A stretch of 59,079 nucleotides of DNA from the NCBI GenBank assembly GCA_964485625.1, contig CAZAJM010000005.1, positions 1-59,079 of the forward strand. The letters run 5' to 3'. Numbering within the stretch: position 1 is the stretch's first letter; every line of letters starts with the position of its first letter. Positions 1-52,329 of the stretch are shown here, one piece after another. Both the position numbers and the translations under genes were made by a program. Origin of the DNA: an uncultured Candidatus Saccharibacteria bacterium. Lineage in GTDB: Bacteria > Patescibacteriota > UBA1384 > JAGGWG01 > CAZAJM01. Under the pieces are notes generated by a model that worked only from the letters and a program-made list of their open reading frames with translations, was not told where the DNA came from and made no database searches.

Positions 1-112
1 AATCTTCGGAAGTGCCAAACATGTTAGGAGAGTTTTTAAAGTAAGCAACAATTGGAGCTAGAATTGGCGTTGAGAGCTGCCAACGAATAAGGTAGAGAAT
101 AAATTTAACCAT
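1..112 (-). CDS. small membrane protein, GtrA-like family (runs off window edge)
   Basis: ATG at 112 reads MVKFILYLIRWQLSTPILAPIVAYF, open to the window edge; RWQLSTP is recalled from small GtrA-like membrane proteins. Confidence 0.55.
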   Translation of the reverse strand, partial: MVKFILYLIRWQLSTPILAPIVAYFKNSPNMFGTSED

Positions 113-203
113 AGTTAGAAATTTAATATTAATAGTATAATTTTACTACTTTTTTAAGTTTTTTAAAATAAAAAAGACCAATTAGATATTAAGAATATAT
201 ATG

Positions 204-584
204 CTATACTCCCAAACCAAACTGGTCTTGGTCATCTTCTTCATCTTCAGTAATACAAGACCACTGACTTAAATCTATTTCAAAACCAAGTAGATCAACC
301 GTTTCTGCCCCTTCTCTAAATAACTGTTCTGCTTCTGCTGCTCTGGCCAGAAGGTTGATATATATCACATAGCCAAGATCGTTCCTATCACAAACACTGG
401 TCTCAATCATATCAAACTGGTCCTGAGCAAATATTTCATCTATCATATTTAAAACAAGTTCGTAGAGAAATTCATCTTCTAGTATAGAAGCTGGGTAACC
501 AACCCTTCTTTCATCAACCAAACTGTCGATAAATTTGTCTATCTTATCCTCCAATGCTTCTCTAGTTGCTACACTTACTCTCAA
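204..584 (-). CDS. acidic hypothetical protein
   Basis: 126-aa ORF with TTG start; followed by long-loop hairpin (AAGACCA 174-180 / TGGTCTT 223-229) and T-tract. Confidence 0.5.
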   Translation of the reverse strand: MRVSVATREALEDKIDKFIDSLVDERRVGYPASILEDEFLYELVLNMIDEIFAQDQFDMIETSVCDRNDLGYVIYINLLARAAEAEQLFREGAETVDLLGFEIDLSQWSCITEDEEDDQDQFGLGV

Positions 585-745
585 AGAACAACCCTTAGCC
601 TGCTTATTGGCATACTTAATCTATTAAATAGAATGAGTGCTTTCAACACTTATTAGCAACGTCTTGCTCCTAGAAACTTTCATCTAATTTCATGGTTAGG
701 TTCTGTATATACCATGGCGCATAGTATTTAAAAAAATAGTAACAA

Positions 746-763
746 TATGCTATAATAAGCATA
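746..763 (+). promoter_or_regulatory. extended -10 promoter overlapped by an inverted repeat (putative TA operator)
   Basis: TGcTATAAT at 748-756; TATGCT-N6-AGCATA palindrome at 746-763. Confidence 0.55.
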
Positions 764-775
764 CAATTAATATAA

Positions 776-1063
776 ATGATGGCAAAAATCATACCCCAAT
801 CAGTAAAAACTACGCTCTGGTCGTATAATACTGAAAAAATTGACTTAAAAGAACATAAAAGAGCAATTATTGGTCAAGTTTTAAATTATGGTGATAAACA
901 GGCTACTGACTGGCTTTTTAATACTTACTCAAAAAAGGTGTTAAAAGAAGAGGCTGGGCAGATACCACTAGGGCAATGGGACAAAAAATCATTAGCACTA
1001 TGGAAACTGATCCTAGATATAGATCCTAGGCCAAAATCAGAAAGGGTATTAAATGACAAATAA
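776..1063 (+). CDS. DUF6922-like putative antitoxin
   Basis: LWSY...IIGQVLNYGD...WLFNTY pattern; overlaps the downstream AbiEii gene. Confidence 0.65.
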   Translation: MMAKIIPQSVKTTLWSYNTEKIDLKEHKRAIIGQVLNYGDKQATDWLFNTYSKKVLKEEAGQIPLGQWDKKSLALWKLILDIDPRPKSERVLNDK

Positions 1064-1691
1064 AATCCATTGGAACATTTTAGACAAGAAACGCACAAAG
1101 CACCTCCCAAGGCTGTCAGCTTTTAATGATAGTTTTTACTTAGCAGGAGGCACGGCTTTAGCCTTGCAAATTGGGCATAGAGATAGTGTAGATTTTGATT
1201 TTTTTACAGAAAAATCTTTTGATACAGAAAAACTTGAAAATAAAATAAACAAAGTATTTTCAGGGTACAAGATAAAAATCTCCCAGAAAGAACCCAACAC
1301 TTTATCAGTAACAATCGACAGTGAAGTCAATCTAAGTTTTATAAGCTATAAATACCCTCTTCTAAATAAGCTGATAAAAACAAAGCATCTTAAATTAGCT
1401 TCTATTGTAGATATCGGTGCAATGAAGCTATCTGCTATTATTAGTCGATCAACAATAAAAGATTATGTTGATCTCTACTATATAATTAAAAACATTGGTT
1501 TAGAAAAATTAATTAGTAGTACTGAAATTAAATATCCGGAGATTGATACTAACTTGATATTAAAAAGTCTTGTCTATTTTAAGGATATCAAAAAAGAACC
1601 AATTGATTTTAAAGAAGACAAAGAAGTGAAATTATCTGAAATCAAAACTTTTTTAAAGAAGTCTGTTCAAATTTATTTAAAAAAGCAGTAA
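1053..1691 (+). CDS. AbiEii/AbiGii-family nucleotidyltransferase toxin (type IV TA)
   Basis: YLAGGTALALQIGHRDSVDFDFF nucleotidyltransferase motif; C-terminal KDYVDLY. Confidence 0.85.
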   Translation: MTNKIHWNILDKKRTKHLPRLSAFNDSFYLAGGTALALQIGHRDSVDFDFFTEKSFDTEKLENKINKVFSGYKIKISQKEPNTLSVTIDSEVNLSFISYKYPLLNKLIKTKHLKLASIVDIGAMKLSAIISRSTIKDYVDLYYIIKNIGLEKLISSTEIKYPEIDTNLILKSLVYFKDIKKEPIDFKEDKEVKLSEIKTFLKKSVQIYLKKQ

Positions 1692-1732
1692 TAATAGTGA
1701 GTACGGGTCTTATTTAATTAATATATTACTGC

Positions 1733-2206
1733 TTAATTTAGTTTCCTAAACCTGCCAACTCTATTAGGATTGTATCTCAAGATCAGCTCATTTCCATCAA
1801 TCCTATACTCTATCTTGTACTTTGCTCCATCAGATCTATCAGTAATTCTTATCTCACTACCATTAACATCGCGAATATCAGAAACATCTTGGCCGCCCAA
1901 GACATAGTTTTCAACCATAACCCCATCTTCTATCTCAATAGAGCCGATTCCGGCACTGGGGCCCACCCAAGCGCCCTCTAGCTGAACCTCCTCGCTTATT
2001 GCTGGAACATATTGCTCTCTTACCTGAGAGCTAAACTCGCTGTCCTTGTCATGAATACCAAATAAGACAAAGTGTGCACCAATTAGCAAGAATAATCCAA
2101 TTACAATCTTAGTCCAAAGAGGAAATTCTGAATCACTACTGTCATTAATATTTCTGTAATACTTTTTTCGTAAATATGTTTCCAACTGTCTGCTTTTCTC
2201 AGGCAT
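1733..2206 (-). CDS. single-TM protein with lipocalin-like beta domain (paralog A)
   Basis: TM helix, then LEGAW and EYRIDGNELIL; SD GAGGAG upstream. Confidence 0.6.
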   Translation of the reverse strand: MPEKSRQLETYLRKKYYRNINDSSDSEFPLWTKIVIGLFLLIGAHFVLFGIHDKDSEFSSQVREQYVPAISEEVQLEGAWVGPSAGIGSIEIEDGVMVENYVLGGQDVSDIRDVNGSEIRITDRSDGAKYKIEYRIDGNELILRYNPNRVGRFRKLN

Positions 2207-2228
2207 TGGCTTGCTCCTCTGAGGCCTT

Positions 2229-2291
2229 TTTTAGCTACGTGCTTAACTAGAATACTACTACATCTCCCTTATTAAGGCAAATAAAAAGAGA
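2229..2291 (-). repeat. 63-bp direct repeat copy 1 containing a promoter
   Basis: identical to 2805-2867; on minus strand TTGCCT (2275-2280), 17 bp, TAGTAT (2252-2257). Confidence 0.95.
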
Positions 2292-2333
2292 TCAAACAAT
2301 ATATTATTTTAGCCTAGCAATAGATTACTTGAC

Positions 2334-2783
2334 CTAGTTGCCCTTACCTTCAATGAACTTTGAATATAGGAGATGAGTGCCTTCACTGTCAATCAATAGC
2401 AGCCTATCCCCGTCCAAACTGTACTCCATCGCTACCAAATTTCCATTCTCATTTAGTACCAACTGATCTCCATCTATAAAGTAGTCCTGATAAACCCGAT
2501 CAAAGTTACCACTGAATTCAACTCTGCCACTACTATTAAAAGTAATCGTCTTGGGCCCGAGAAAAATACCTCCGTTCTCTAACTTCCAGACTCCTTCCAA
2601 TTTACTCTCTGTGCTTAAGGGAATATTAACTTCCCCATCAGCCATCGCGGAAGTGTAGGTATCAAAACTATGGTTAGCAACTATTAACGACACAAAGATG
2701 AAAGTCAAGCCAATTCCAAGACAGATATTAATATACAATCGCTGCGCTCCTTCTAACCTATCATACCAGACCAGAGGGTTCAT
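2334..2783 (-). CDS. single-TM protein with lipocalin-like beta domain (paralog B)
   Basis: TM helix, then LEGVW and EYSLDGDRLLL; SD GGAGGT upstream. Confidence 0.65.
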   Translation of the reverse strand: MNPLVWYDRLEGAQRLYINICLGIGLTFIFVSLIVANHSFDTYTSAMADGEVNIPLSTESKLEGVWKLENGGIFLGPKTITFNSSGRVEFSGNFDRVYQDYFIDGDQLVLNENGNLVAMEYSLDGDRLLLIDSEGTHLLYSKFIEGKGN

Positions 2784-2804
2784 TCAGAGTACCTCCAACT
2801 CTTC

Positions 2805-2867
2805 TTTTAGCTACGTGCTTAACTAGAATACTACTACATCTCCCTTATTAAGGCAAATAAAAAGAGA
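2805..2867 (-). repeat. 63-bp direct repeat copy 2 containing a promoter
   Basis: identical to 2229-2291; TTGCCT (2851-2856), 17 bp, TAGTAT (2828-2833). Confidence 0.95.
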
Positions 2868-2908
2868 CGAATAAAGTCAATAATATATTTTGGCTAACTA
2901 AATTCGTC
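2866..2908 (-). terminator. long-loop terminator of the 2898-3410 gene
   Basis: GACGAAT/ATTCGTC 7-bp stem, 29-nt loop, followed by TCTTTTT; one arm lies inside the last codons. Confidence 0.55.
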
Positions 2909-3410
2909 CGTCCCTACCATGCTTTGGTGCTTGCGGGCAACCACTTCTTAAGAACATAGCATCCATTCCTGCATATACAAGTGCCTCCTTCGACTCATCA
3001 CTAAAGATCTGATTAACCCTATCATCATCCAAGCCCCAAATCTCGATGAATAGCTTCCTGACCATTCCCCTAAGCCTTGGTGTGCTTAAAATACTCTGCC
3101 AATGCTCTTCCAAATATGGCAACAAACTGCCGACACAGAATCGATGAGCTTCAATTTTCATCGTCATAGGACTCCTGAATTGGTTATGGTCTGATTCCTC
3201 TGGACTAACATCAACATAGCAGAAATATGGGTCCCTAATCTCATCTCCACTCATTCCCAATGCGCCAGCAAGCTCAGCTAGAAAATCAAAGTGAGGACAT
3301 ACTTTTTCTTTACTCATATAGAGAAAATAACCTTTCATACCCCCAACCATATCTTCTGTTTGAACATTAACAAATGTAGTTCCTTCTCTAGGATCAGAGA
3401 CTATACCCAC
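2898..3410 (-). CDS. hypothetical protein
   Basis: 170-aa ORF; SD GGAGGTG 6 nt before GTG. Confidence 0.65.
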   Translation of the reverse strand: MGIVSDPREGTTFVNVQTEDMVGGMKGYFLYMSKEKVCPHFDFLAELAGALGMSGDEIRDPYFCYVDVSPEESDHNQFRSPMTMKIEAHRFCVGSLLPYLEEHWQSILSTPRLRGMVRKLFIEIWGLDDDRVNQIFSDESKEALVYAGMDAMFLRSGCPQAPKHGRDGRI

Positions 3411-3470
3411 TTACTCCACCTCCATGTCAAGCTGCTTGTTTGCTCAACTAAATATTAATACAAATTAAAA

Positions 3471-3494
3471 AGAGAAGCAAATATATACTTCTCT
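3471..3494 (-). terminator. intrinsic terminator
   Basis: AGAGAAG/CTTCTCT stem, 10-nt loop, flanked by A and T tracts. Confidence 0.6.
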
Positions 3495-3508
3495 CTTTAT
3501 TTTTTTTC

Positions 3509-4990
3509 TTAGATAACAGGCTCAACGTAGATCGGGCTATCGGTTAGTGTAATGTTTTTAGCATTTTTAATAGTTTGGCTGCCATAGATATCCGTCACTT
3601 TAACTTGGCCTTCATTTACTAACTCTTTTGGTAACTCAGCCTCTCCCCAGAGAACATAGGTCTCATAGCTACCATTAATAAACTTGTACTGGCCAATTTG
3701 ACTATCGGCAGTTGTCGCTCCCTCTTCGCTCTCAATCTGCTCATACTCTTCTTCTACTACCTCTACCTGATCAAAGTAGTTTAGCTTATCGATTAGAGTT
3801 AGATAGACCTTGTGAGTACTGCTATTTCGCTGCTCATCAGTTAGCTCTTCCTCCATAGGCTCTTTCTTCTCCTCCTTATCTTCATCCTCAGGTGGCTTTC
3901 TGTCCATCATCTCTTCTTGATCCATCCCCCAGAAAAGCCAGTTTTGAATATATACCAGCTTCTGGGCCCCCAAGCTATATGAAAGGGCGGTTGCCTTAAC
4001 CATCTGTTTTTCAATCTGTTCTTTCTCTTCTTGACTGGGCTCATCCATCAAACTGCCAAATTGAACTTCTGTAATCCAGACCGGCTTATCTTCCAAGCCA
4101 TATTTTTCTAAGAATTTATTAAACTCAATCATATAGAGATCATCCCTGGTATCTGGGGTTGAGATAGTATGGTTATTGGCAATATCAAAGTACTCTCCGC
4201 CACCTTTGGCTAAGATAGGTCCCCAAAAATCTTTAACTTCCTGTTGCATACCGGCCATGCCTCCATTTAAGACCATGGCGCTACTATCGGCCGCCTTAAT
4301 AGCTTGATAGCTATTCTTTAGGGTATCTAGGTAATCTTGACTGCTACCGACAAAGAACTTCAATTCCTCTCCGGCTCCGCCCGTGCCACCTCCCTGCATA
4401 ATTGGCTCATTTATTATCTCCCAATATTTTATCGGCTCAGTTAGTCCAGGCATATCATCAATGCCATCGCCATCGTACCTCTCTACTGCTGCCATTAGAA
4501 ACTCCCGATACTCTTCCATCGAGCATGGCTTGCCCATCTTTAAGTCTCCCCCACTCTTAGAGTGCTCAGGCGCTAAATACTCATCTCCTTGATGGCAAGT
4601 ATCTTGGTCCCAATTAACAAAAGGCTGGATAATCACAATTGGGTAGGCCTCTCTGGTCTCTAAGATCATCCTTACCTTATCGTCCATCATAGAGAAATCC
4701 ATCTGATCTTTTACTGGCTCAACTTCACTCCAATTTAGATCACACTCTCTCACCCAATAGGCACCCATAGTATCGGCTATTTTGTTCAATCTAGACTCTT
4801 TGATGTCTTCTGATAAAGTGATTGCCTCTTGAGTACTGCCCTCTTCTTCTACCTCATCTTCAATCAGGTAGTACTGGTAGAAAAAATATCCTCCAACAAG
4901 CAAGAGAATAACCACTAGCAAAGCAATTATTAGATTTGTTTTTGAGCTCCTTTTGCCCATCTGCTCAACCTCTTCCATCTCCTTTTTCAT
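3509..4990 (-). CDS. membrane-anchored clan GH-A glycoside hydrolase-like protein
   Basis: N-terminal TM; WEIINEP (acid/base) and PVWITE (nucleophile) motifs; DGDGIDD loop. Confidence 0.75.
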   Translation of the reverse strand: MKKEMEEVEQMGKRSSKTNLIIALLVVILLLVGGYFFYQYYLIEDEVEEEGSTQEAITLSEDIKESRLNKIADTMGAYWVRECDLNWSEVEPVKDQMDFSMMDDKVRMILETREAYPIVIIQPFVNWDQDTCHQGDEYLAPEHSKSGGDLKMGKPCSMEEYREFLMAAVERYDGDGIDDMPGLTEPIKYWEIINEPIMQGGGTGGAGEELKFFVGSSQDYLDTLKNSYQAIKAADSSAMVLNGGMAGMQQEVKDFWGPILAKGGGEYFDIANNHTISTPDTRDDLYMIEFNKFLEKYGLEDKPVWITEVQFGSLMDEPSQEEKEQIEKQMVKATALSYSLGAQKLVYIQNWLFWGMDQEEMMDRKPPEDEDKEEKKEPMEEELTDEQRNSSTHKVYLTLIDKLNYFDQVEVVEEEYEQIESEEGATTADSQIGQYKFINGSYETYVLWGEAELPKELVNEGQVKVTDIYGSQTIKNAKNITLTDSPIYVEPVI

Positions 4991-5087
4991 AGATATATAT
5001 TAATTAATTCCTATTACTAAGCATTATACCACATTTAAGCTTTTCTGGTTAAATAAAATAAGGAGCAAGAAGAGAAATATTATAGTT

Positions 5088-5852
5088 TTAGTCTCTAACT
5101 ACTCCCAAAGAATTAACCAGCTCAACAGTTTTTCTAACCGAGCCTTCTAAATCGTTTAATACCGTCCGGCGGTCGCTAGGTAACCAATCATTATGAAACA
5201 TCATCCCAACCGGCTGACAATCATCCACCCTGTCCATAGTTGGGTCATAGATACCAGCAATCTTGTCGTAGGTCCTTTGAATAATGCTGATCATATCCCC
5301 GCTATAGCTATCCTCTCTGCCATTAAAACAAATCCCAAAATGGCTAAGCTGGAAACGAAAGACTTCCAAATCAATACCTGGTATATAGGGATCGGGCATT
5401 GTTTGCTGGTGAAGAGCCAGGCCTAAAGTAGACCAAACAATATTTGCCACAGCATCGGCAGCTACAAAGGCATTGATCATTCTCTGCTCATCACCACTAA
5501 ACTCAACAAAATCAATTCGACCACAACTACTGCGAACATTTGAAGCTCTGTGTATATAAACACCCGAACCGGAGCATGCAACCACGCTACCAACCAACTT
5601 AGTCTCAAGATATCTAATCACCAGCGCACTACCATCCAAATCGATATCGGCTAAGACAATCACATAATCATGATGTTTCTGAGTATAGCCAAAAATGGCT
5701 TGTGCTGCCTGATCCATCTGATAAAGACTGCCACAGCCACTACTAACACAGCTATATGTATAATCTCCTTCTGTCTGGCAAAACTCATCAATTGCCAAAC
5801 TGGTGATATCATCAATCCTACCATCATCAACAAGCACCCAGATCATGGGCAT
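5088..5852 (-). CDS. hypothetical protein with N-terminal receiver (REC)-like domain
   Basis: WVLVDD, VIVLADIDLDG and VVACSG match REC beta1/beta3/beta4; SD AAAGGAGG. Confidence 0.55.
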   Translation of the reverse strand: MPMIWVLVDDGRIDDITSLAIDEFCQTEGDYTYSCVSSGCGSLYQMDQAAQAIFGYTQKHHDYVIVLADIDLDGSALVIRYLETKLVGSVVACSGSGVYIHRASNVRSSCGRIDFVEFSGDEQRMINAFVAADAVANIVWSTLGLALHQQTMPDPYIPGIDLEVFRFQLSHFGICFNGREDSYSGDMISIIQRTYDKIAGIYDPTMDRVDDCQPVGMMFHNDWLPSDRRTVLNDLEGSVRKTVELVNSLGVVRD

Positions 5853-5895
5853 GGATTGCCTCCTTTAGTCTTTTTAGGCTACAGTTCCAATACTT

Positions 5896-5931
5896 AACCT
5901 AATATATATTTATAATTTTGGCAAATAAAAA
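5896..5931 (-). promoter_or_regulatory. sigma70 promoter for 5088-5852
   Basis: TTGCCA (5919-5924), 17 bp, TAGGTT (5896-5901); shares the TTTTTATTTGCC core with the 63-bp repeats. Confidence 0.65.
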
Positions 5932-5941
5932 AGAAGGTAGA

Positions 5942-6484
5942 TCAATAGGTTTCTAGCCCTAAGTGGTTAACTGTGGCTTCATATAGCGCCTCTGGTGCTT
6001 CCGGGTTAAATTGAGCTAAATGTAATTGATCACTACCTTCCTGTTCAACTAAATCATCAAAAGACAGCCCATTTCTAATTAAATCTCCTAGAATTGGGTG
6101 GCCAAGCCCATCAAACCTGATTAGTTCAGAAGTATTTCTTTTCTGAGGATTTCTAAGTAAGTGAGCCAAGTCTCTAGAAAGGTTTCTGCTACTTACATCT
6201 ATCGCTGGCAGCAGTATTAATTCGGCTTGGTAATGGAGGTAACAGATACACTGACTCTTGCCTACTCCGATAATATGACCATCAGGCAATACCAGACAAT
6301 CATGGTATTCCATATGGCCAATGGTTCTATCTGAGCTTGAATCCAGGCTAAAAAAGATTGGTCGCCATAGAGTAGTATCTACTAATAGTCTAGCTGAATC
6401 TGTTCTTTCTTCAAGCATACAGATAAGTGAGTAGAGCAAGTAATAACAGTTTTTGGTTATTGCATCCCTTCTGGCTATAGCCAT
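5942..6484 (-). CDS. hypothetical protein
   Basis: 180-aa ORF; own promoter TTGACA (6556-6561), 17 bp, GACAAT (6533-6538). Confidence 0.6.
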   Translation of the reverse strand: MAIARRDAITKNCYYLLYSLICMLEERTDSARLLVDTTLWRPIFFSLDSSSDRTIGHMEYHDCLVLPDGHIIGVGKSQCICYLHYQAELILLPAIDVSSRNLSRDLAHLLRNPQKRNTSELIRFDGLGHPILGDLIRNGLSFDDLVEQEGSDQLHLAQFNPEAPEALYEATVNHLGLETY

Positions 6485-6580
6485 CTTTCTCTGCCCCCTT
6501 CGGCTCTAGTAGAAAGCTACAAGTCCATCTATATTGTCTCTAAATTTAATATAATTGTCAAAGAAATTTTCTAAGAAAAA

Positions 6581-6611
6581 ATCCCGAATTAAGGACTAAT
6601 AGATTCGAGAT
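6581..6611 (-). terminator. intrinsic terminator
   Basis: ATCTCGAAT/ATTCGGGAT 9-bp stem with one G-U pair, 13-nt loop, T-tract. Confidence 0.7.
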
Positions 6612-6623
6612 AAAAATAACTTG

Positions 6624-6950
6624 CTAGCAAACTAGCCAAAAATAAATGATGTAATCAAGAAAAGAGTCTTCGTTAACATGCTCAGGAGAGCCAAGCTCCC
6701 TCTCAAATGAATCGACAACTTTATTCCTTTCAGCTATTGTTGTTTCTTCTCGTTCAAAGACCAAGGCGTAGTAGATGTCATCTCCAAATTGAACCTTAAA
6801 CACTCGGAAAGGAACTTGATCAAACCTATCTTCATAGCCATTAAGTAGATTTAACTTATTCTGACGAGATCTGTCGGCAAATAAAGCAGAATCATAAATC
6901 TCAATCTCCTCCCCCTCAATCAATGTCTCCCAAGTGGCTGATACACTCAC
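6624..6950 (-). CDS. acidic hypothetical protein
   Basis: SD AGGAGGAGG 7 nt before GTG; promoter TTGAAC (7019-7024), 17 bp, TAGTTT (6996-7001). Confidence 0.65.
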   Translation of the reverse strand: MSVSATWETLIEGEEIEIYDSALFADRSRQNKLNLLNGYEDRFDQVPFRVFKVQFGDDIYYALVFEREETTIAERNKVVDSFERELGSPEHVNEDSFLDYIIYFWLVC

Positions 6951-7062
6951 TATTACTCCTCCTCCTACTTCAGTTTGTGGTGCGCTGTCAATTTAAAACT
7001 AACACAATCACCTTAATTGTTCAACCTTTTTTGTTATATATACTTAATGTATAATAATAACA

Positions 7063-8286
7063 ATGGCCATAAACCAAAAATCTCAAGACTATCAAAAACT
7101 TTTTTTGGATATGAACTCCTTCTTTGCTTCTGTTGAAAAGCAGGTTCAGCCAAGCATTAGAGATATACCTGTAGGCATCACTCCATACACCGGTGATACT
7201 GGCTGTATAATAGCGGCCTGCTATCAGGCTAAAGACTTTGGCGTCAAGACCGGTTGTCGGGTAGGTGAGGCCAAGAAGCTCTGTCCGGACATTAAGATCA
7301 TTGAGGCCCGTCCTGCACTCTATATCATCTACCATAAAGAGCTCAAGAAAGTAGTTGAGTCCTTCTCTCCCTTCTATACCCCTCTTAGTGTCGATGAGTT
7401 TGTTATCAATCTAGAAAGAAACGAACAGAACAGAAAAACTTCCCTGGAAATTGGCAGGCAGATTAAAGAAAAAATTAGAGAAGAGGTCGGAGACTATCTA
7501 ACCTGCTCGGTCGGTATTGGGCCTAGTAAGTTACTAGCTAAGATGGCTGCCGAATCTAAAAAGCCAGACGGCCTAACTCTTCTTGAATTAAAAAAATTAG
7601 AGAACTTCTACTCTACTCTGGAGTTAACAGATATTCCCGGTATCGCCAAAGGAATGGGGAGAAGGCTTAGTCAAATTGGAATTAACAGCCCGCTTGAGTT
7701 CTACCAAGCAGATCTAGGCCTACTTAAAAGACACTTAGGCGTAATTGGCCGCTCTTGGTATTTTAGCTTAAGAGGTTACGAGCTGGAAAGTAGAGTTAAG
7801 AATAGAAGCATTGGTCACTCCTCTGTTCTGGCTCCAGAAGACAGAAACAAGAGAAGAGCTACTCAGGTACTTAGAAAACTAGCCCATAAAGTTGGGGAGA
7901 GAATAAGAGAAAGGGATTGGTGGGCAGAAGGAGTCAGAGTTTCAGTCAGTTTTCTGGGTAAAGGCCAGTTTAGTAGGAGCAAAAAAATAGCCCCTTTTAA
8001 AGATAATAGGAGTCTAAACATTCATATCGATAGTATTTTAAAAAACTGCTCCTGGCCCAAACCACCCTTAAAGGTAAGTGTCTCTGCTTTTAATCTAACT
8101 AAGCAGTTTAATGGGCAGTTAAATCTATTTGAAGATATAGATAGGTCTCGGCAAATTTCTGAAATGATCGATCAGATAAATAGCAAGTTTGGCCGACAGA
8201 CAATTAGCACCGCCTCTGCTTTTCAAGCTAAAGATAAATCTCCTAACCGAATTGCTTTTGGCCAACCGAACTATGAGATGGATTAA
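7063..8286 (+). CDS. dinB: Y-family DNA polymerase (DinB/Pol IV-like)
   Basis: LFLDMNSFFASVE, SVDE, LLAKMA motifs; C-terminal QLNLF clamp-binding motif. Confidence 0.9.
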   Translation: MAINQKSQDYQKLFLDMNSFFASVEKQVQPSIRDIPVGITPYTGDTGCIIAACYQAKDFGVKTGCRVGEAKKLCPDIKIIEARPALYIIYHKELKKVVESFSPFYTPLSVDEFVINLERNEQNRKTSLEIGRQIKEKIREEVGDYLTCSVGIGPSKLLAKMAAESKKPDGLTLLELKKLENFYSTLELTDIPGIAKGMGRRLSQIGINSPLEFYQADLGLLKRHLGVIGRSWYFSLRGYELESRVKNRSIGHSSVLAPEDRNKRRATQVLRKLAHKVGERIRERDWWAEGVRVSVSFLGKGQFSRSKKIAPFKDNRSLNIHIDSILKNCSWPKPPLKVSVSAFNLTKQFNGQLNLFEDIDRSRQISEMIDQINSKFGRQTISTASAFQAKDKSPNRIAFGQPNYEMD

Positions 8287-8295
8287 ATAAAAAAA

Positions 8296-8325
8296 CCGTC
8301 TTAATCAAGGGGGAGAAAAAAGACG
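8296..8325 (-). terminator. intrinsic terminator
   Basis: CCGTCTT/AAGACGG stem, 16-nt loop, T-tract on minus strand. Confidence 0.6.
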
Positions 8326-8326
8326 G

Positions 8327-8632
8327 CTAGATGCCGGGCAAGATTGAACAAATTATTTCAAGTGCTTGGATGTCATTTTGGAAAAAACAGAGTAGAGAGA
8401 TAAGTACTAAATAGAGGACAAAAAATACCATCATAATCAAAACCATCCCACCTAAACCAGATAAACTCTTATCATCTTTCATCTGATTATATGACCAAAT
8501 AGCACCAAAAATAATTATTGGTATGGGTGTTAGTAAAGTCAAACCAATAAGAACTCTATGGTTAATATTAGGCACAACGAGTAAAAAGACAAAACCAAGC
8601 AAATATGCAAGCAGGCTGATCACTAGTCTCAT
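8327..8632 (-). CDS. small multi-TM hypothetical protein
   Basis: start moved to ATG 8632 (SD GGGGAGG); promoter TTGAAA (8695-8700), 17 bp, TAGGTT (8672-8677); about 3 hydrophobic segments. Confidence 0.65.
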   Translation of the reverse strand: MRLVISLLAYLLGFVFLLVVPNINHRVLIGLTLLTPIPIIIFGAIWSYNQMKDDKSLSGLGGMVLIMMVFFVLYLVLISLLCFFQNDIQALEIICSILPGI

Positions 8633-8707
8633 GATTGCCTCCCCTGACTGTGAAGTTCCGAACATAAGTACAACCTAGCAAAAATATATTTTCTTTTCAA
8701 CCAAAAA

Positions 8708-8729
8708 GCCCGGTAGTAATTTACCGGGC
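8708..8729 (-). terminator. tig terminator
   Basis: perfect GCCCGGTA/TACCGGGC stem followed by TTTTT on minus strand. Confidence 0.85.
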
Positions 8730-8740
8730 CTCTTCTTTTG

Positions 8741-10084
8741 CTATTTTTTCTTACTTTTACTCTTACTTTTTTTCTTCTCCTTCTTTTCGCCTTTTTTCTT
8801 ATTGAGTTCTTTTAAGGCCTCTAGGGTCTTCTCGTTTCGTAAGACATTACTAATAAAGTTCTGGCCTTGCTCAGATTCGTAGTGTTCTCTAAGCTCATTC
8901 TTATCACCACCCTGCATCATTCCCTGACTGATCATTGATTCAGTTTTAGCCTTAATATCTTTATCAGTTGGCTTAACATCCTCTTCTTTGGCTAGCTGGT
9001 TAAGAACTAGAGCCACCTTAACGTTCTGCTCAGCAGACTCCTTAAGCTTCTTCTCATAGTCTTTCTCATCGATCTTAAACTTCTTGAAGTACTGCTCTTT
9101 GGTCATGCCTTGTTGGGCCAACTGACTCTCTTGCTCCTGGCTAATTCGGCTATACTCCTGTTCAACTAAGGCCTCAGGTAATTCAAACTTGGCCTTATCT
9201 ACTAGCTTGGCAATTAGGTCTTGTTCGTATTTCTTCTCTATCTCAGTCTCCATCTGTTTCTCTTGAGCTTCCTTAAACTTAACCTCAAGGTCTTCTTTGT
9301 CTTTAGCACCCATCTTCTTGGCTACCTCATCCAAACTTGCCTCTTTAACCTTCTTAACACCGTTAATCTCTACCTCAAATTCAACTTCTTTGCCTGCCAT
9401 CTCTTTATCAGGATGGTCTTTGGGAAGCTTTAGTTTAAAGCTCTTCTTCTCGCCTTTCTTCATTCCCTCAATCTGATCTTCAAAGCCATCGATAAAGCCA
9501 CCCTGGCCAATAACGAAAGGGTGATTCTGGCTAGAGAGCTGATCTACTTTAGCTCCTTTCAATTTACCTTCAAAGCTTACCTCTACCCAATCGCCTTTCT
9601 CGGCTTTTCCGTCTTTATCTTCATAGTCGGCCATTCTTTTCTTTAGGCTATCTAAGCCCTGCTTAATATCTTTCTTAGTTAGTTTAGCCTCTTCTTTTTT
9701 CACTTTTAAGTTCTTGTAGTTTGGCAATTTAATCTCAGGCATCAGATCAACCGTGTAAGACAGCTTAACTGGCTTATCTTCTTCAAACTGCTTGACATCA
9801 ACCTTTGGCTGACCGACTGCTTTTAAACCTTCATCCATAACCACCTTGCCATATACCTCCGGCAATGCCATCTGTAAGGCCTCTTGCTCAATCTTGCCCT
9901 CCTCTAAATGTTTCTTGGCAACTTTAGCAGGAACCTTACCTTTGCGAAAACCTTTAACTTCAACTTGCTTAGCTAGCTTCTCTAGAGCATCTTTCTTAAA
10001 CTCTTCAAATACCTTGACCGGCACCTCAACCAGAAGCTTAACTTTAGTCTTTTTAATCTCTTCTTTTTTAACTTTTAGATCCAT
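8741..10084 (-). CDS. tig: trigger factor
   Basis: GFRKGKVP ribosome-binding motif, FKBP-like domain, SurA-like C-terminal domain. Confidence 0.95.
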   Translation of the reverse strand: MDLKVKKEEIKKTKVKLLVEVPVKVFEEFKKDALEKLAKQVEVKGFRKGKVPAKVAKKHLEEGKIEQEALQMALPEVYGKVVMDEGLKAVGQPKVDVKQFEEDKPVKLSYTVDLMPEIKLPNYKNLKVKKEEAKLTKKDIKQGLDSLKKRMADYEDKDGKAEKGDWVEVSFEGKLKGAKVDQLSSQNHPFVIGQGGFIDGFEDQIEGMKKGEKKSFKLKLPKDHPDKEMAGKEVEFEVEINGVKKVKEASLDEVAKKMGAKDKEDLEVKFKEAQEKQMETEIEKKYEQDLIAKLVDKAKFELPEALVEQEYSRISQEQESQLAQQGMTKEQYFKKFKIDEKDYEKKLKESAEQNVKVALVLNQLAKEEDVKPTDKDIKAKTESMISQGMMQGGDKNELREHYESEQGQNFISNVLRNEKTLEALKELNKKKGEKKEKKKSKSKSKKK

Positions 10085-10149
10085 AGAATTTAAAATATTT
10101 AATTTAATTTTTGTTTACATCCTGTACAGCTTAACAAGAAAATGGCTTT

Positions 10150-10205
10150 TTGTAAAGAAAAAAGACGCTAATAACAGTAGAAATTAATACTACCTAACTA
10201 GCGAC
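10150..10205 (-). repeat. 56-bp terminator/-35 block A, copy 1
   Basis: 55/56 identical to 10781-10836; imperfect hairpin plus T6 running into TTTACA. Confidence 0.9.
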
Positions 10206-10719
10206 TGAACTTCATGCTCTCTATCAAGGTCCCTAACTGATCTTCACTGTATTTAACAGCGCCATAATACATATCATCAATAGCATCTTGTTGACGCTCT
10301 AAACAATAATTGATCTCACTGACTCTATCTGAGGTATAGACTATAACTCTAATCATAGGTCCAAAATCTCCAGTAACCTTAACTGCCTGAAACTGGTAGC
10401 AAGACCCAGAGTTAGGATAGAATACCTTATAGGCTTTAACAACCTCGCCTTCATTGGTCTTCCAACCTTCAGATTCATGAACAAATATCTCCGGACAATT
10501 AGCACGTATCCACTCTAAGGAAGCAATATCAAGATTATCTACTTCACCAATACCAACTCGGTAATAATATCTCTTCATGCCACGTATAATCATTATTACT
10601 CCAAATAATGCTAAAAACCCAAAAATGATAAGGTCATGAGTAGCCAACCAAACAAAGGCCAAAATAACTGACACTAGAATTAACTGAATATACAAGTACC
10701 TCCATGCCCTTGGGAACAT
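10198..10719 (-). CDS. 2-TM hypothetical protein (cassette paralog 1)
   Basis: start moved to ATG 10719 (SD GGGAGG 6 nt upstream); remote similarity to 10825-11331 (NL..LEWI..N.P.I, YKVFY). Confidence 0.7.
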   Translation of the reverse strand: MFPRAWRYLYIQLILVSVILAFVWLATHDLIIFGFLALFGVIMIIRGMKRYYYRVGIGEVDNLDIASLEWIRANCPEIFVHESEGWKTNEGEVVKAYKVFYPNSGSCYQFQAVKVTGDFGPMIRVIVYTSDRVSEINYCLERQQDAIDDMYYGAVKYSEDQLGTLIESMKFSR

Positions 10720-10729
10720 ATTTTTCCTC

Positions 10730-10794
10730 CCGTACTTCAAAGATCGATGCTGAATAAGATACTACACTAAATATTAGTTATTGTAAAGAAAAAA
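10730..10794 (-). repeat. 65-bp promoter/5'UTR block B, copy 1
   Basis: 64/65 identical to 11345-11409; TTTACA (10782-10787), 17 bp, TAGTAT (10759-10764). Confidence 0.9.
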
Positions 10795-10836
10795 GACGCT
10801 AATAACAGTAGAAATTTATACTACCTAACTAGCGAC
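10781..10836 (-). repeat. 56-bp terminator/-35 block A, copy 2
   Basis: 55/56 identical to 10150-10205; overlaps block B by the 14-bp core TTGTAAAGAAAAAA. Confidence 0.9.
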
Positions 10837-11331
10837 CAGTTGGCGTGCTTTTTCAAGATTAAGCCTACTTAGCTTAATAGCACTTTTATGAGCTGCAGCT
10901 AACGCTTTTCTTCTGTCTTCAATTGGATATCGCTCTTGATGGATATTACCCTCATCGTCGACCACATCAACAGTGATCTCATCTTTGCTTGGATTAAACT
11001 TTGCTTCAACGACTCGGAAATGGTCCTCGAAATACACTCTATACCTAGTTGTCAGGTTATCACAAAAAAGTTTATCGGCTAGTATCCCTGGCCTATTTTC
11101 TATTAGCCACTCAATATCTTCGGAAGACAAATTTAGTGTATCTTCTCTAATAGTTCTAAAATTTCGATCCAAGATTATCAACAGGGTGAGTATCAACGGA
11201 ATAAATATAATTATCACAATGGATAAACATAAATCACCAATACCGAAATCTAATCGAATTTTCAAAACAAAAAGTATCAACATACAAGTTGCTATCAATA
11301 TCACAAAGAGCTTTCTTTGGCTTGGCAACAT
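10825..11331 (-). CDS. 2-TM hypothetical protein (cassette paralog 2)
   Basis: likely ATG at 11331 (alternatives 11340, or TTG 11355); remote paralog of 10198-10719. Confidence 0.7.
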   Translation of the reverse strand: MLPSQRKLFVILIATCMLILFVLKIRLDFGIGDLCLSIVIIIFIPLILTLLIILDRNFRTIREDTLNLSSEDIEWLIENRPGILADKLFCDNLTTRYRVYFEDHFRVVEAKFNPSKDEITVDVVDDEGNIHQERYPIEDRRKALAAAHKSAIKLSRLNLEKARQLVAS

Positions 11332-11344
11332 GCTCCTCATCCTT

Positions 11345-11409
11345 CCGTACTTCAAAGATCGATGCTGAATAAGATACTACATTAAATATTAGTTATTGTA
11401 AAGAAAAAA
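11345..11409 (-). repeat. 65-bp promoter/5'UTR block B, copy 2
   Basis: 64/65 identical to 10730-10794; TTTACA (11397-11402), 17 bp, TAGTAT (11374-11379). Confidence 0.9.
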
Positions 11410-11472
11410 AGCTTCAATAAAGGTGTAAAAAAGTGCGGATCTAGTAACTGACCTTAAATTAAAGCTTGATAG

Positions 11473-11631
11473 TTAGTGCTCGTTATACCATTTCTGATTG
11501 TTATGACGACTATGAGGTAGCTTTCTTGGAGAGGTGCTCCCACATGTTACAATCTGCTCACAATAACTCTTAAATGATATACGATTAGTCTCCCCCTGCT
11601 TTCTGCTTCTTTCTTCTGTTGCCAACTTCAT
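11473..11631 (-). CDS. putative small protein of 50-52 aa (not in ORF track)
   Basis: MKLATEERSRKQGETNRISFKSYCEQIVTCGSTSPRKLPHSRHNNQKWYNEH; GGAGG 7 nt before in-frame TTG 11625; upstream TGaTATAAT (11667-11675); downstream hairpin 11410-11466 plus T-tract. Confidence 0.35.
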   Translation of the reverse strand: MKLATEERSRKQGETNRISFKSYCEQIVTCGSTSPRKLPHSRHNNQKWYNEH

Positions 11632-11814
11632 TCCTCCCTCTGCTGCCTTCCTAACGGCTTGAATATATTATATCAAACATTTATTAAGCCAGACTGTGGA
11701 TAGCTTTGAATAGTAGTAGTTTAAATTAAAAAAAGACAGTAAATATATACTAAAGATTAGTTTATGTAAAGAAAAAATAGCTGGTTTAACCTGTCTTCAG
11801 CTATTTAATCGATA

Positions 11815-12682: not shown

Positions 12683-13078
12683 CTACTTTTCTATCACTTT
12701 CCAGCCCGATCGATCAGACTTATCCACAGTTATAGGAGAAAGGTATCTTTTAAGCTCTGAGAGAAAAATTATTGATCCGTAGTTGGCCTTATCTCTAATG
12801 CGCCAAAACTTATTAGTTGTTTTAGATTTTGATTGGTATCGTTTTTTTAATTGAGTAAGTTTCTGACCATCCAGCCTATCAAAAAAGAGCACGTTCTCAA
12901 TCCGTGCTTCTCCATAGACCTTGCCGCCCGATTTTTTGATTAAGATCAGCTCACCTCTTCTAGCCTGTTGGTAGGGAGCGATAGCCTTTTTAGAGAGCCT
13001 AATATCTACTCTTTTATCGGCCCTAAAAACCTTATCAATTTGATCTTTGCTAAAAACAGCAATATGTTTCTTGCTCAT
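12683..13078 (-). CDS. ASCH/PUA-like domain protein
   Basis: HIAVF...KRVDIRLS...PY...GELILIKKSGGKVYG pattern. Confidence 0.65.
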   Translation of the reverse strand: MSKKHIAVFSKDQIDKVFRADKRVDIRLSKKAIAPYQQARRGELILIKKSGGKVYGEARIENVLFFDRLDGQKLTQLKKRYQSKSKTTNKFWRIRDKANYGSIIFLSELKRYLSPITVDKSDRSGWKVIEK

Positions 13079-52193: not shown

Positions 52194-52244
52194 AGCCCCT
52201 GATTATTATACCTATACACTACAATCATTATTGGGGCTTTTTTT
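52194..52244 (+). terminator. long-loop terminator abutting the next -35
   Basis: AGCCCC/GGGGCT stem, 33-nt loop, T6, then TTGACA. Confidence 0.6.
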
Positions 52245-52246
52245 AC

Positions 52247-52329
52247 TTGACAACAGAATTAAAAATACTATATTTAAGCTAGAATTTATCTTAGCGAATC
52301 GCACCTATCCTAGACAAGAATAGGAGGTG
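52247..52329 (+). promoter_or_regulatory. promoter and SD-sequestering leader of the HxH peptide gene
   Basis: TTGACA (52247-52252), 16 bp, TATATT (52269-52274); CACC-TA-TCCT (52302-52311) complementary to SD AGGAGGTG (52322-52329). Confidence 0.6.

Follow-up and report, generated by a model that had tools for sequence, protein, structure and literature searches.

The stretch of DNA analyzed here, called the window below, comprises 59,079 nt from an uncultured Candidatus Saccharibacteria bacterium and is the entire contig C5 of a metagenome-assembled genome (MAG; 723,905 bp, 31 contigs, 95.7% complete, GC 0.39). An earlier note on this DNA had described positions 170-11780 as an array of self-contained units, each with a promoter, a Shine-Dalgarno (SD) site, an ORFan open reading frame (ORF) and a terminator, and had read it as a plug-and-play system of gene cassettes. 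This region was investigated with our own gene call on the MAG (751 genes, 88.6% coding) and by comparison with four metagenomic genomes, represented by the contigs L036/L050, L051, L052 and L057; the nearest species genomes compared belong to the same order only. Genes of the region lie mostly on the minus strand, with a DUF6922/AbiEii pair and dinB on the plus strand, and a ribbon-helix-helix (RHH)-nucleotidyltransferase gene and pfkB come after it. Two pairs of units are referred to throughout, ORF_A with ORF_B (pair 1) and U1 with U2 (pair 2), the latter encoding proteins with two transmembrane (TM) segments (2-TM). The features are, by position in the window:

166-229, minus strand: terminator (long hairpin and T-tract) of the 126-aa ORF, dG -22.3, its 5' arm within the last codons
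204-584, minus strand: 126-aa acidic ORF, with an ortholog in L036 (42% identity)
776-1691, plus strand: DUF6922 and AbiEii toxin-antitoxin pair, low GC (0.33), missing at this position in L036
1684-1733, both directions: bidirectional long-loop hairpin terminator between AbiEii and ORF_B
1733-2206, minus strand: ORF_B, 157 aa, predicted TM helix and 8-stranded beta domain; L036 ortholog 53-54% identical
2226-2291, minus strand: promoter block copy 1 (T-tract, TTGCCT-17-TAGTAT, 5' untranslated region (UTR))
2334-2783, minus strand: ORF_A, 149 aa, remote paralog of ORF_B, without counterpart in L036
2801-2867, minus strand: promoter block copy 2, preceded by a terminator at 2868-2912
2898-3410, minus strand: 170-aa ORF, whose L036 homolog is split by a stop codon
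3509-4990, minus strand: 493-aa conserved membrane-anchored protein, not an ORFan
5088-5852, minus strand: 254-aa ORFan
5942-6484, minus strand: 180-aa ORF, with an ortholog in L050 (52% identity)
6624-6950, minus strand: 108-aa acidic ORF unit, missing in L050 between dinB and the 180-aa gene
7063-8286, plus strand: DinB (Y-family polymerase), core gene inside the run
8327-8632, minus strand: 101-aa multi-TM protein, with a diverged L050 ortholog (26% identity)
8741-10084, minus strand: trigger factor (tig), core gene with the same promoter/terminator grammar
10147-10205, minus strand: terminator block copy
10150-10163, minus strand: junction core copy 3, TTTTTTCTTTACAA, the T-tract of the U1 terminator and the -35 of the tig promoter
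10198-10719, minus strand: unit U1, 173-aa 2-TM protein
10725-10836, minus strand: middle junction of terminator block, core (10781-10794) and promoter block
10825-11328, minus strand: unit U2, 167-aa 2-TM protein
11340-11409, minus strand: U2 promoter block, with core copy 1 (11396-11409)
11473-11631, minus strand: 52-aa basic ORF with its own extended -10 promoter, with counterparts in L050, L051, L052 and L057
11720-11800, minus strand: orphan junction module of hairpin, T-tract and TTTACA-17-TATATT promoter block, then a T-tract, without an ORF
52194-52252, plus strand: the same grammar elsewhere, with long-loop hairpin, T-tract, TTGACA-16-TATATT and the SD site of an HxH mini-protein gene

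Between 1733 and 11328 twelve genes form the longest monocistronic run of the MAG (the runner-up has 7), and with 8 complete units per 11.6 kb the region has the highest density genome-wide, the next-best value being 6. Single-gene units of promoter, SD site and terminator were found as described in the earlier note, but the run also includes genes that are no ORFans, namely tig, dinB and the conserved 493-aa gene. As core genes sit between the ORFs, the 'ORFan array' is interrupted.

Predicted promoters with a 17-nt spacer were found at every site named in the earlier note: TTGCCT-17-TAGTAT upstream of 2206 and 2783, TTGCCA-17-TAGGTT upstream of 5852, TTGACA-17-GACAAT upstream of 6484, TTGAAA-17-TAGGTT upstream of 8632, TTTACA-17-TAGTAT upstream of 10719 and 11331, and TTTACA-17-TATATT at 11742-11770. 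For 6950 the upstream promoter is a weak one, read either as TTGAAC-17-TAGTTT or as TTGACA-17-GTAGGA, the latter overlapping the SD site. Match quality in the region ranges from 7.5 to 10 of 12, several -10 boxes (TAGGTT, TAGTTT, GACAAT) are weak, and a raw two-strand promoter scan of the region gave 39 matches versus 34.9 expected from shuffles, which is not above chance. Genome-wide, sense matches were detected in 114 of 241 same-strand intergenic regions, compared with 54 for antisense and 64 for shuffled sequences; the preference for a 17-nt spacer is confined to the sense orientation, and most -10 boxes are positioned 25-45 nt upstream of the start codon. Matches to the sigma-70 promoter and intrinsic terminator consensus are thus in the right position and orientation and above controls, as judged from sequence. 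GGAGG-type SD sites precede nearly all ORFs of the region.

A hairpin with a T-tract was found 3' of 12 of the 14 genes of the region versus 147 of 328 elsewhere (Fisher p=0.004; antisense control 31%). The region hairpins span ~45 nt, their loops are often long and one arm often lies within the last codons, in line with the earlier description; yet such spans are usual throughout the genome, with a median of 42 nt elsewhere. At 8 of 9 region promoters the T-tract stands directly against the -35, compared with 36 of 189 elsewhere (p=2.6e-5). Spacers measure ~90-130 nt, so that the terminator T-tract runs straight into the next -35. In total 44 such T-tract/-35 junctions were counted genome-wide, including those of ftsK, leuS, a class II aminoacyl-tRNA synthetase gene, cca, and YkuD (L,D-transpeptidase) and M23 peptidase genes; tig is preceded by the same grammar, and its recurrence at 52194-52252 could be confirmed, there with a 16-nt spacer. 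The genome-wide motif scan that had been proposed as a check therefore speaks against a cassette-specific grammar, as the same junctions occur at 36 other sites including core genes. Junction grammar that also precedes core genes marks a compact genome and not cassettes, and its concentration in this region follows from the many short genes on one strand, every one with a spacer of its own.

Within the region, parts of the junctions are repeated. The promoter blocks 2226-2291 and 2801-2867, spanning T-tract, promoter and 5' UTR, are identical at 66 of 67 positions (98.5%); the promoter blocks 10725-10794 and 11340-11409 are 97% identical over 70 nt, and the terminator blocks 10147-10205 and 10778-10836 97% over 59 nt. 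The enclosed ORFs have diverged: ORF_A and ORF_B are 25% identical at the protein level (E=3e-4), U1 and U2 23%, and the DNA of the paired ORFs is at about random identity (7-17 of 30 per window of comparison). Hence, in this genome, blocks that are 97-100% identical flank ORFs that are 23-25% identical. The core TTTTTTCTTTACAA, 14 nt long, joins a terminator T-tract to the next -35; it occurs three times in this genome, always at this locus, versus 0.03 copies expected. The 'converging junctions' of the earlier note are real as T-tract/-35 joints, although their convergence is partly the product of two local duplications of promoter and terminator blocks.

No further block copies were detected in this genome, and the blocks lie outside its dispersed families resembling repetitive extragenic palindromes (REP) or miniature inverted-repeat transposable elements (MITE). 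Neither promoter block had a match in scans of public genome and metagenome contig collections, and public assemblies had no record exactly matching U1, U2, ORF_A or the 493-aa protein. Logan contigs of SRR15425350/51 represent the same strain and break inside the repeat blocks. Other local intergenic repeats (C1:50.5-52 kb, C1:93.8-95.7 kb, C1:140-143 kb, C8:16 kb, C4:59-61 kb) gave no clear pair of conserved flanks around diverged ORFs, as judged by gene listing and repeat membership, flank versus ORF identity not having been checked; they are part of dispersed repeat families or lie in regions with LAGLIDADG-type ORFs. Two dispersed families of MITE/REP-like elements were observed that are distinct from the junction blocks. 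One, intergenic, ~80-105 nt long and 91-97% identical, lies at C1:52732-53197, C6:44706-45491, C4:11423-11747, C3:15265-15438 and C1:138039-138267; the other is a shorter family of 22-32 nt, which is also present at C5:34219-34284.

Contig L036 was reached through one outside homolog of the pair-1 family, L050, L051 and L052 through a 90% cluster of the nucleotidyltransferase, and L057 through a profile search. L050 and L036 are from the same metagenome, and the end of L050 overlaps the start of L036. Backbone identity to this nearest relative is 81% for both tig and the 493-aa protein, and tig of L051 and tig of L057 are 71% identical to each other, whereas the small ORFs common with relatives are 26-54% identical. 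A first look with a concatenated ORFan query against 162 same-class genomes matched only the 131-aa gene at 12683-13078, the filter being insensitive (3 of 12 pieces were returned even in the own genome).

Gene content differs among the five genomes by whole promoter-ORF-terminator units, which agrees with the reading of the earlier note. Between the 52-aa basic ORF and tig, L050 has no unit, L057 one, L051 one with an additional 96-aa ORF beside it, this genome two and L052 at least two. When aligned with L050 (alignment A6), the left and right flanks meet at a single core copy, an exact empty site at which this genome has 1,246 nt with two units between 14-nt direct repeats. Eight junction promoters in 4 genomes retain the core, which also flanks the single L057 unit on both sides; in L051 the right-hand joint has diverged from it (TTGAAG). 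The ORF_A unit corresponds to an extra 576 nt with one promoter-block copy, is bounded by both copies and is missing in L036, and the terminator upstream of ORF_A is orthologous to a terminator in L036. The 108-aa unit is missing in L050; TTGACA is found at both of its ends here and once in L050, its left breakpoint being poorly resolved. Before the 493-aa gene the slot has been replaced, with the 254-aa ORF here and an unrelated ORF of ~107 aa in the relative, and homology resumes at the extended -10. Further unit-level differences are the AbiE pair, missing at this position in L036, and the orphan junction module at 11720-11800, an insertion relative to L051 and L052. Breakpoints were located in terminator/promoter junctions, one exact empty site being bounded by the 14-nt direct repeat.

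The comparison also bears on the age of the repeated flanks. In the relative, the pair-1 promoter is ~70% identical to the copies here (our own count in alignment A5), and the split between ORF_A and ORF_B (25%) is older than that between ORF_B and its L036 ortholog (53-54%). Near-identical flanks combined with an orthologous promoter at ~70% and an older ORF split argue that flank identity reflects recent recombination (duplication, conversion, or stacking or exchange of alleles) and not constraint. Comparing L051 with L057, we found 34% identity for the unit ORFs, and promoter blocks that are clearly alike by eye.

The sole tyrosine recombinase of the genome (PF00589) is encoded on contig C7 and scores best as XerD/XerC (251/246 bits), while against the integron integrase model TIGR02249 it reaches 132 bits with a cut-off of 265. 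No recombinase was found on the 59-kb contig and no serine recombinase in the genome; a single Y1_Tnp gene is located on contig C2. The statement that no integrase is in view holds, and the search for a tyrosine recombinase or HUH nuclease as cassette enzyme, which the earlier note had suggested, led only to the Xer-like and Y1_Tnp genes, both off-contig. RecA and ComEC are encoded in the genome.

In our view the region is rather likely to be a hotspot where genes turn over as whole units, on a compact chromosome of the Candidate Phyla Radiation (CPR) type, through recombination between junction homology blocks and not by a dedicated cassette machine. Since no dedicated cassette enzyme was seen, ordinary recombination at the repeated joints is the likely cause, and the data require no more than recombination driven by homology and microhomology. 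The small lineage-specific genes would be autonomous units with a sigma-70-like promoter, a 17-nt spacer, a strong SD site and an intrinsic terminator, and the short junctions (14-nt core TTTTTTCTTTACAA, 63-70-nt promoter blocks, 59-nt terminator block) are the sole sequences common to neighboring units. Recombination from junction to junction could then duplicate, delete, stack or exchange entire units, by a RecA-dependent route between the longer blocks or by slippage or a microhomology-mediated route at the core; as ComEC is present, imported DNA may contribute. Selection would keep only joints that restore the terminator of the upstream gene and the promoter of the downstream gene, and survival of such events alone would create the plug-and-play appearance. 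The ORFs themselves (the 2-TM family, the family with a TM helix and a beta barrel, and several acidic cytosolic singletons) turn over very fast, by evolution or by exchange.

Several points weigh against this explanation. Backbone identities of 71-81% are too low to give the direction of each indel, and breakpoints of presence/absence differences are necessarily intergenic, where the DNA is here almost entirely terminator and promoter. Only the tig-side joint is resolved to the nucleotide, and a core of 14 nt is short for RecA-dependent recombination. Flanks of 97-100% identity around unalignable ORFs are unusual for simple duplication and divergence and would presumably call for gene conversion or allele swapping. 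Promoter and terminator activity of the junctions, finally, is predicted.

One rival explanation is purely ordinary architecture, with a compact AT-rich genome that has monocistronic accessory genes and generic gain and loss, in which junctions would have no special role and the duplicated blocks would be young local duplications. The 36 junctions elsewhere, core genes included, are in its favor, as are the long-span hairpins throughout the genome, the raw regional promoter scan at chance level and the distance of the relatives (71-81% tig identity), which is enough for much turnover. We nevertheless regard it as unlikely in view of the exact empty site with a 14-nt direct repeat whose 14-mer is otherwise missing from the genome, the same core bracketing units in several genomes, the flanks of 97-100% identity around ORF DNA of random-level identity when the orthologous promoter is at ~70%, and the highest unit density of the genome.

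Alternatively, the T-tract/-35 core could be a genuine insertion site for cassettes that split a promoter. An incoming unit would separate the -35 of a resident promoter from its spacer, supply a spacer and -10 of its own, and restore at its 3' end a terminator and a -35 for the displaced gene, the process being catalyzed by an unrecognized activity such as Xer or a host factor acting at the core. We judge this improbable; if true, it would amount to a recombinase-poor, expression-ready integron analog in ultra-small bacteria.

A dedicated site-specific cassette system, integron-like or new, would have a recombinase recognizing the T-tract/-35 core or the terminator hairpins. Integron attC sites carry conserved inverse cores, RYYYAAC ... 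GTTRRRY, at the 3' end of the cassette, and integrons hold mostly promoterless cassettes expressed from a common Pc promoter. Like integrons, the region has single-gene units in one orientation, each with an imperfect long hairpin at its 3' end that is superficially attC-like, and a content that varies among relatives; moreover, the core brackets units precisely, the single-core empty site resembles a target or att arrangement, and there is an orphan junction module without an ORF. Unlike integrons, it has neither IntI in the genome nor conserved R and L core sites in its hairpins, whereas its units have their own -35/17/-10 match and SD site, its joints differ by slot (TTTACA core, TTGCC block, TTGACA) and core genes are interspersed. 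Inspection of the 10 listed hairpins, made without an attC covariance model, revealed no attC-like core; the stem sequences bear no relation to each other, and a T-tract follows every hairpin. Further arguments against such a system are the lack of a recombinase on the contig and of a serine recombinase in the genome, the single Y1_Tnp gene on C2, and the absence of the blocks from every dispersed repeat family and from the genome and metagenome collections scanned. With an Xer-like enzyme as sole tyrosine recombinase and no common hairpin core, an integron-like system is not supported. The plug-and-play cassette system of the earlier note, with its grammar found genome-wide and its blocks purely local, is accordingly very improbable.

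Least probable of all is an assembly artefact in which the assembler would have placed alleles of coexisting strains one after the other by way of shared flanks of more than the assembly k-mer length: the MAG has 55-nt contig-end overlaps, exceeded by repeat blocks of 59-70 nt, and the Logan contigs from both sister runs are interrupted within the blocks, but the middle junction of terminator block, core and promoter block would exist in neither allele, the 14-mer is far below any assembly k, the pair-1 arrangement has a distinct terminator on each side, and independent JGI and NCBI assemblies of relatives show like arrays in single contigs, L052 with at least two units. A prophage or genomic island was rejected as well, on account of the lack of phage matches, a normal composition except for the AbiE pair, and the interspersed core genes.

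Turnover at junction blocks has known counterparts. Recombination between homology blocks, including 3' intergenic blocks, alters the copy number of Staphylococcus aureus esaG and lpl and of streptococcal tipC arrays (Garrett et al., 2022; PMC9484751). Those arrays, like the region, line up small paralogs that are not identical and that vary in number from one related genome to another, as found here among five genomes, and they combine conserved blocks, including the gene end and downstream intergenic DNA, with variable sequence between; as in the model proposed here, recombination between blocks expands or deletes units without a dedicated recombinase. The region differs in having blocks that are essentially all non-coding (terminator, T-tract/-35 core, promoter, 5' UTR), in the much stronger divergence of its ORFs (18-34% identity) and in units that each form a transcription unit of their own. 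Neither a toxin nor a secretion system was seen linked to it, its host is of the CPR type, and turnover is deduced from genome comparison at the genus level. A variable array or turnover zone analogous to the esaG, tipC and lpl arrays appears to be the best fit. What is new here are bifunctional terminator/promoter joints as homology blocks, hyper-divergent ORFs and a CPR-type host.

The term putative mobile promoters denotes near-identical promoter regions of at least 50 nt whose downstream coding sequences lack nucleotide similarity; there is no association with insertion sequences, and constraint versus recent duplication is an open question (Matus-Garcia, Nijveen and van Passel, 2012; PMC3575422). 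Both promoter-block pairs share at least 80% identity over at least 50 nt, and the coding sequences behind them show no nucleotide similarity. Movement of a promoter independently of its gene was not found for these pairs: the copies are adjacent, the downstream ORFs are remote paralogs of the same architecture, and in pair 2 the terminator block was duplicated along with the promoter. For the region, the comparison with relatives favors recent duplication or conversion over constraint, and thus offers an answer to that question, namely that near-identity of copies would stem from recent recombination. With REP sequences and REP-associated tyrosine transposases (RAYT), and with the MITE repeats of this genome, the junction blocks have in common that they are short repeated intergenic sequences with hairpin potential; unlike these, they match each other only locally, belong to no dispersed family and show no dispersed multi-copy distribution.

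To our knowledge, genomes of CPR bacteria (Patescibacteria) are tiny and hold almost no classic mobile elements and many unknown small proteins, and how their accessory genes are renewed is poorly understood. The locus would provide a concrete, nucleotide-resolved example in which expression-ready single-gene units are stacked, lost or swapped at terminator/promoter joints, so that units could be exchanged beside essential genes without upsetting the transcription of neighbors. Compact insulating terminator-promoter junctions may also be candidate parts for synthetic biology.

The proteins of the units have no Pfam, NCBIfam, PADLOC or PHROG match. The 254-aa ORF matched only itself among 5.8e9 proteins, and the 2-TM family upstream of tig has 6 members among 1.84 billion cluster representatives, which share a common architecture and one conserved Trp; its AlphaFold2 model is weak (pLDDT 57). 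For the pair-1 family a TM helix and a confident 8-stranded beta domain were predicted. Foldseek with this model returned nothing significant, with weak similarity to the calycin, fatty-acid-binding protein and lipocalin type, and ORF_B has weak DUF5640/calycin-like similarity. No toxin gene was seen in the flanks of the array. Functions in conflict, such as immunity or exclusion, would fit ORFs with fast turnover, a suggestion we make tentatively; the 2-TM family upstream of tig is a candidate conflict or host-interaction locus of episymbiont-type bacteria.

The 493-aa protein is ~68% identical at the DNA level in two other same-class genomes and has neither a Pfam match nor a PDB sequence match; its NEP and TEV motifs suggest a candidate clan GH-A-like glycosidase. 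A 131-aa protein without a Pfam match is encoded at 12683-13078 (minus strand), and 46 of the 161 other same-class genomes encode homologs (E as low as 1e-34). Its gene is a conserved CPR gene of unknown function that adjoins the RHH-nucleotidyltransferase gene.

The 52-aa basic ORF, missed by our gene call, belongs to a family of 52-63 aa found at the same position, between nucleotidyltransferase and array, in five genomes (window 11473-11631, minus strand; L050 11456-11623; L052 2070-2243; L051 2926-3117; L057 ~313-476). It is Cys/His-rich in several relatives. Its extended -10 promoter is TTTGATATAAT in 3 of the 5 genomes, with variants in L050 and L051, and a purine-rich leader, AGGGAGGAA, is conserved; it could be a small protein or a regulatory leader. 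In L050, two small TM ORFs (86 and 53 aa; 10875-11328) follow the nucleotidyltransferase, with SD sites and without promoter or terminator, and the orphan junction module occupies their position in the window.

Two observations were made on L036. At 2062-2580 a single stop codon divides the homolog of the 170-aa ORF into parts of 105 and 65 aa, which could reflect a pseudogene, read-through or a sequencing error. At 4051-5679, S9 peptidase and RadC genes follow the 125-aa ortholog; neither has a tblastn match in the 95.7%-complete genome studied here, so that the left edge of the region is also where synteny stops. As to the contig ends, window positions 1-55 equal C30 1611-1665, and identical 55-nt overlaps, an assembly k-mer signature, occur at the ends of C2/C4 and C7/C8/C11. 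C30 probably joins the left end of the window contig, and several contig ends carry one common repeat.

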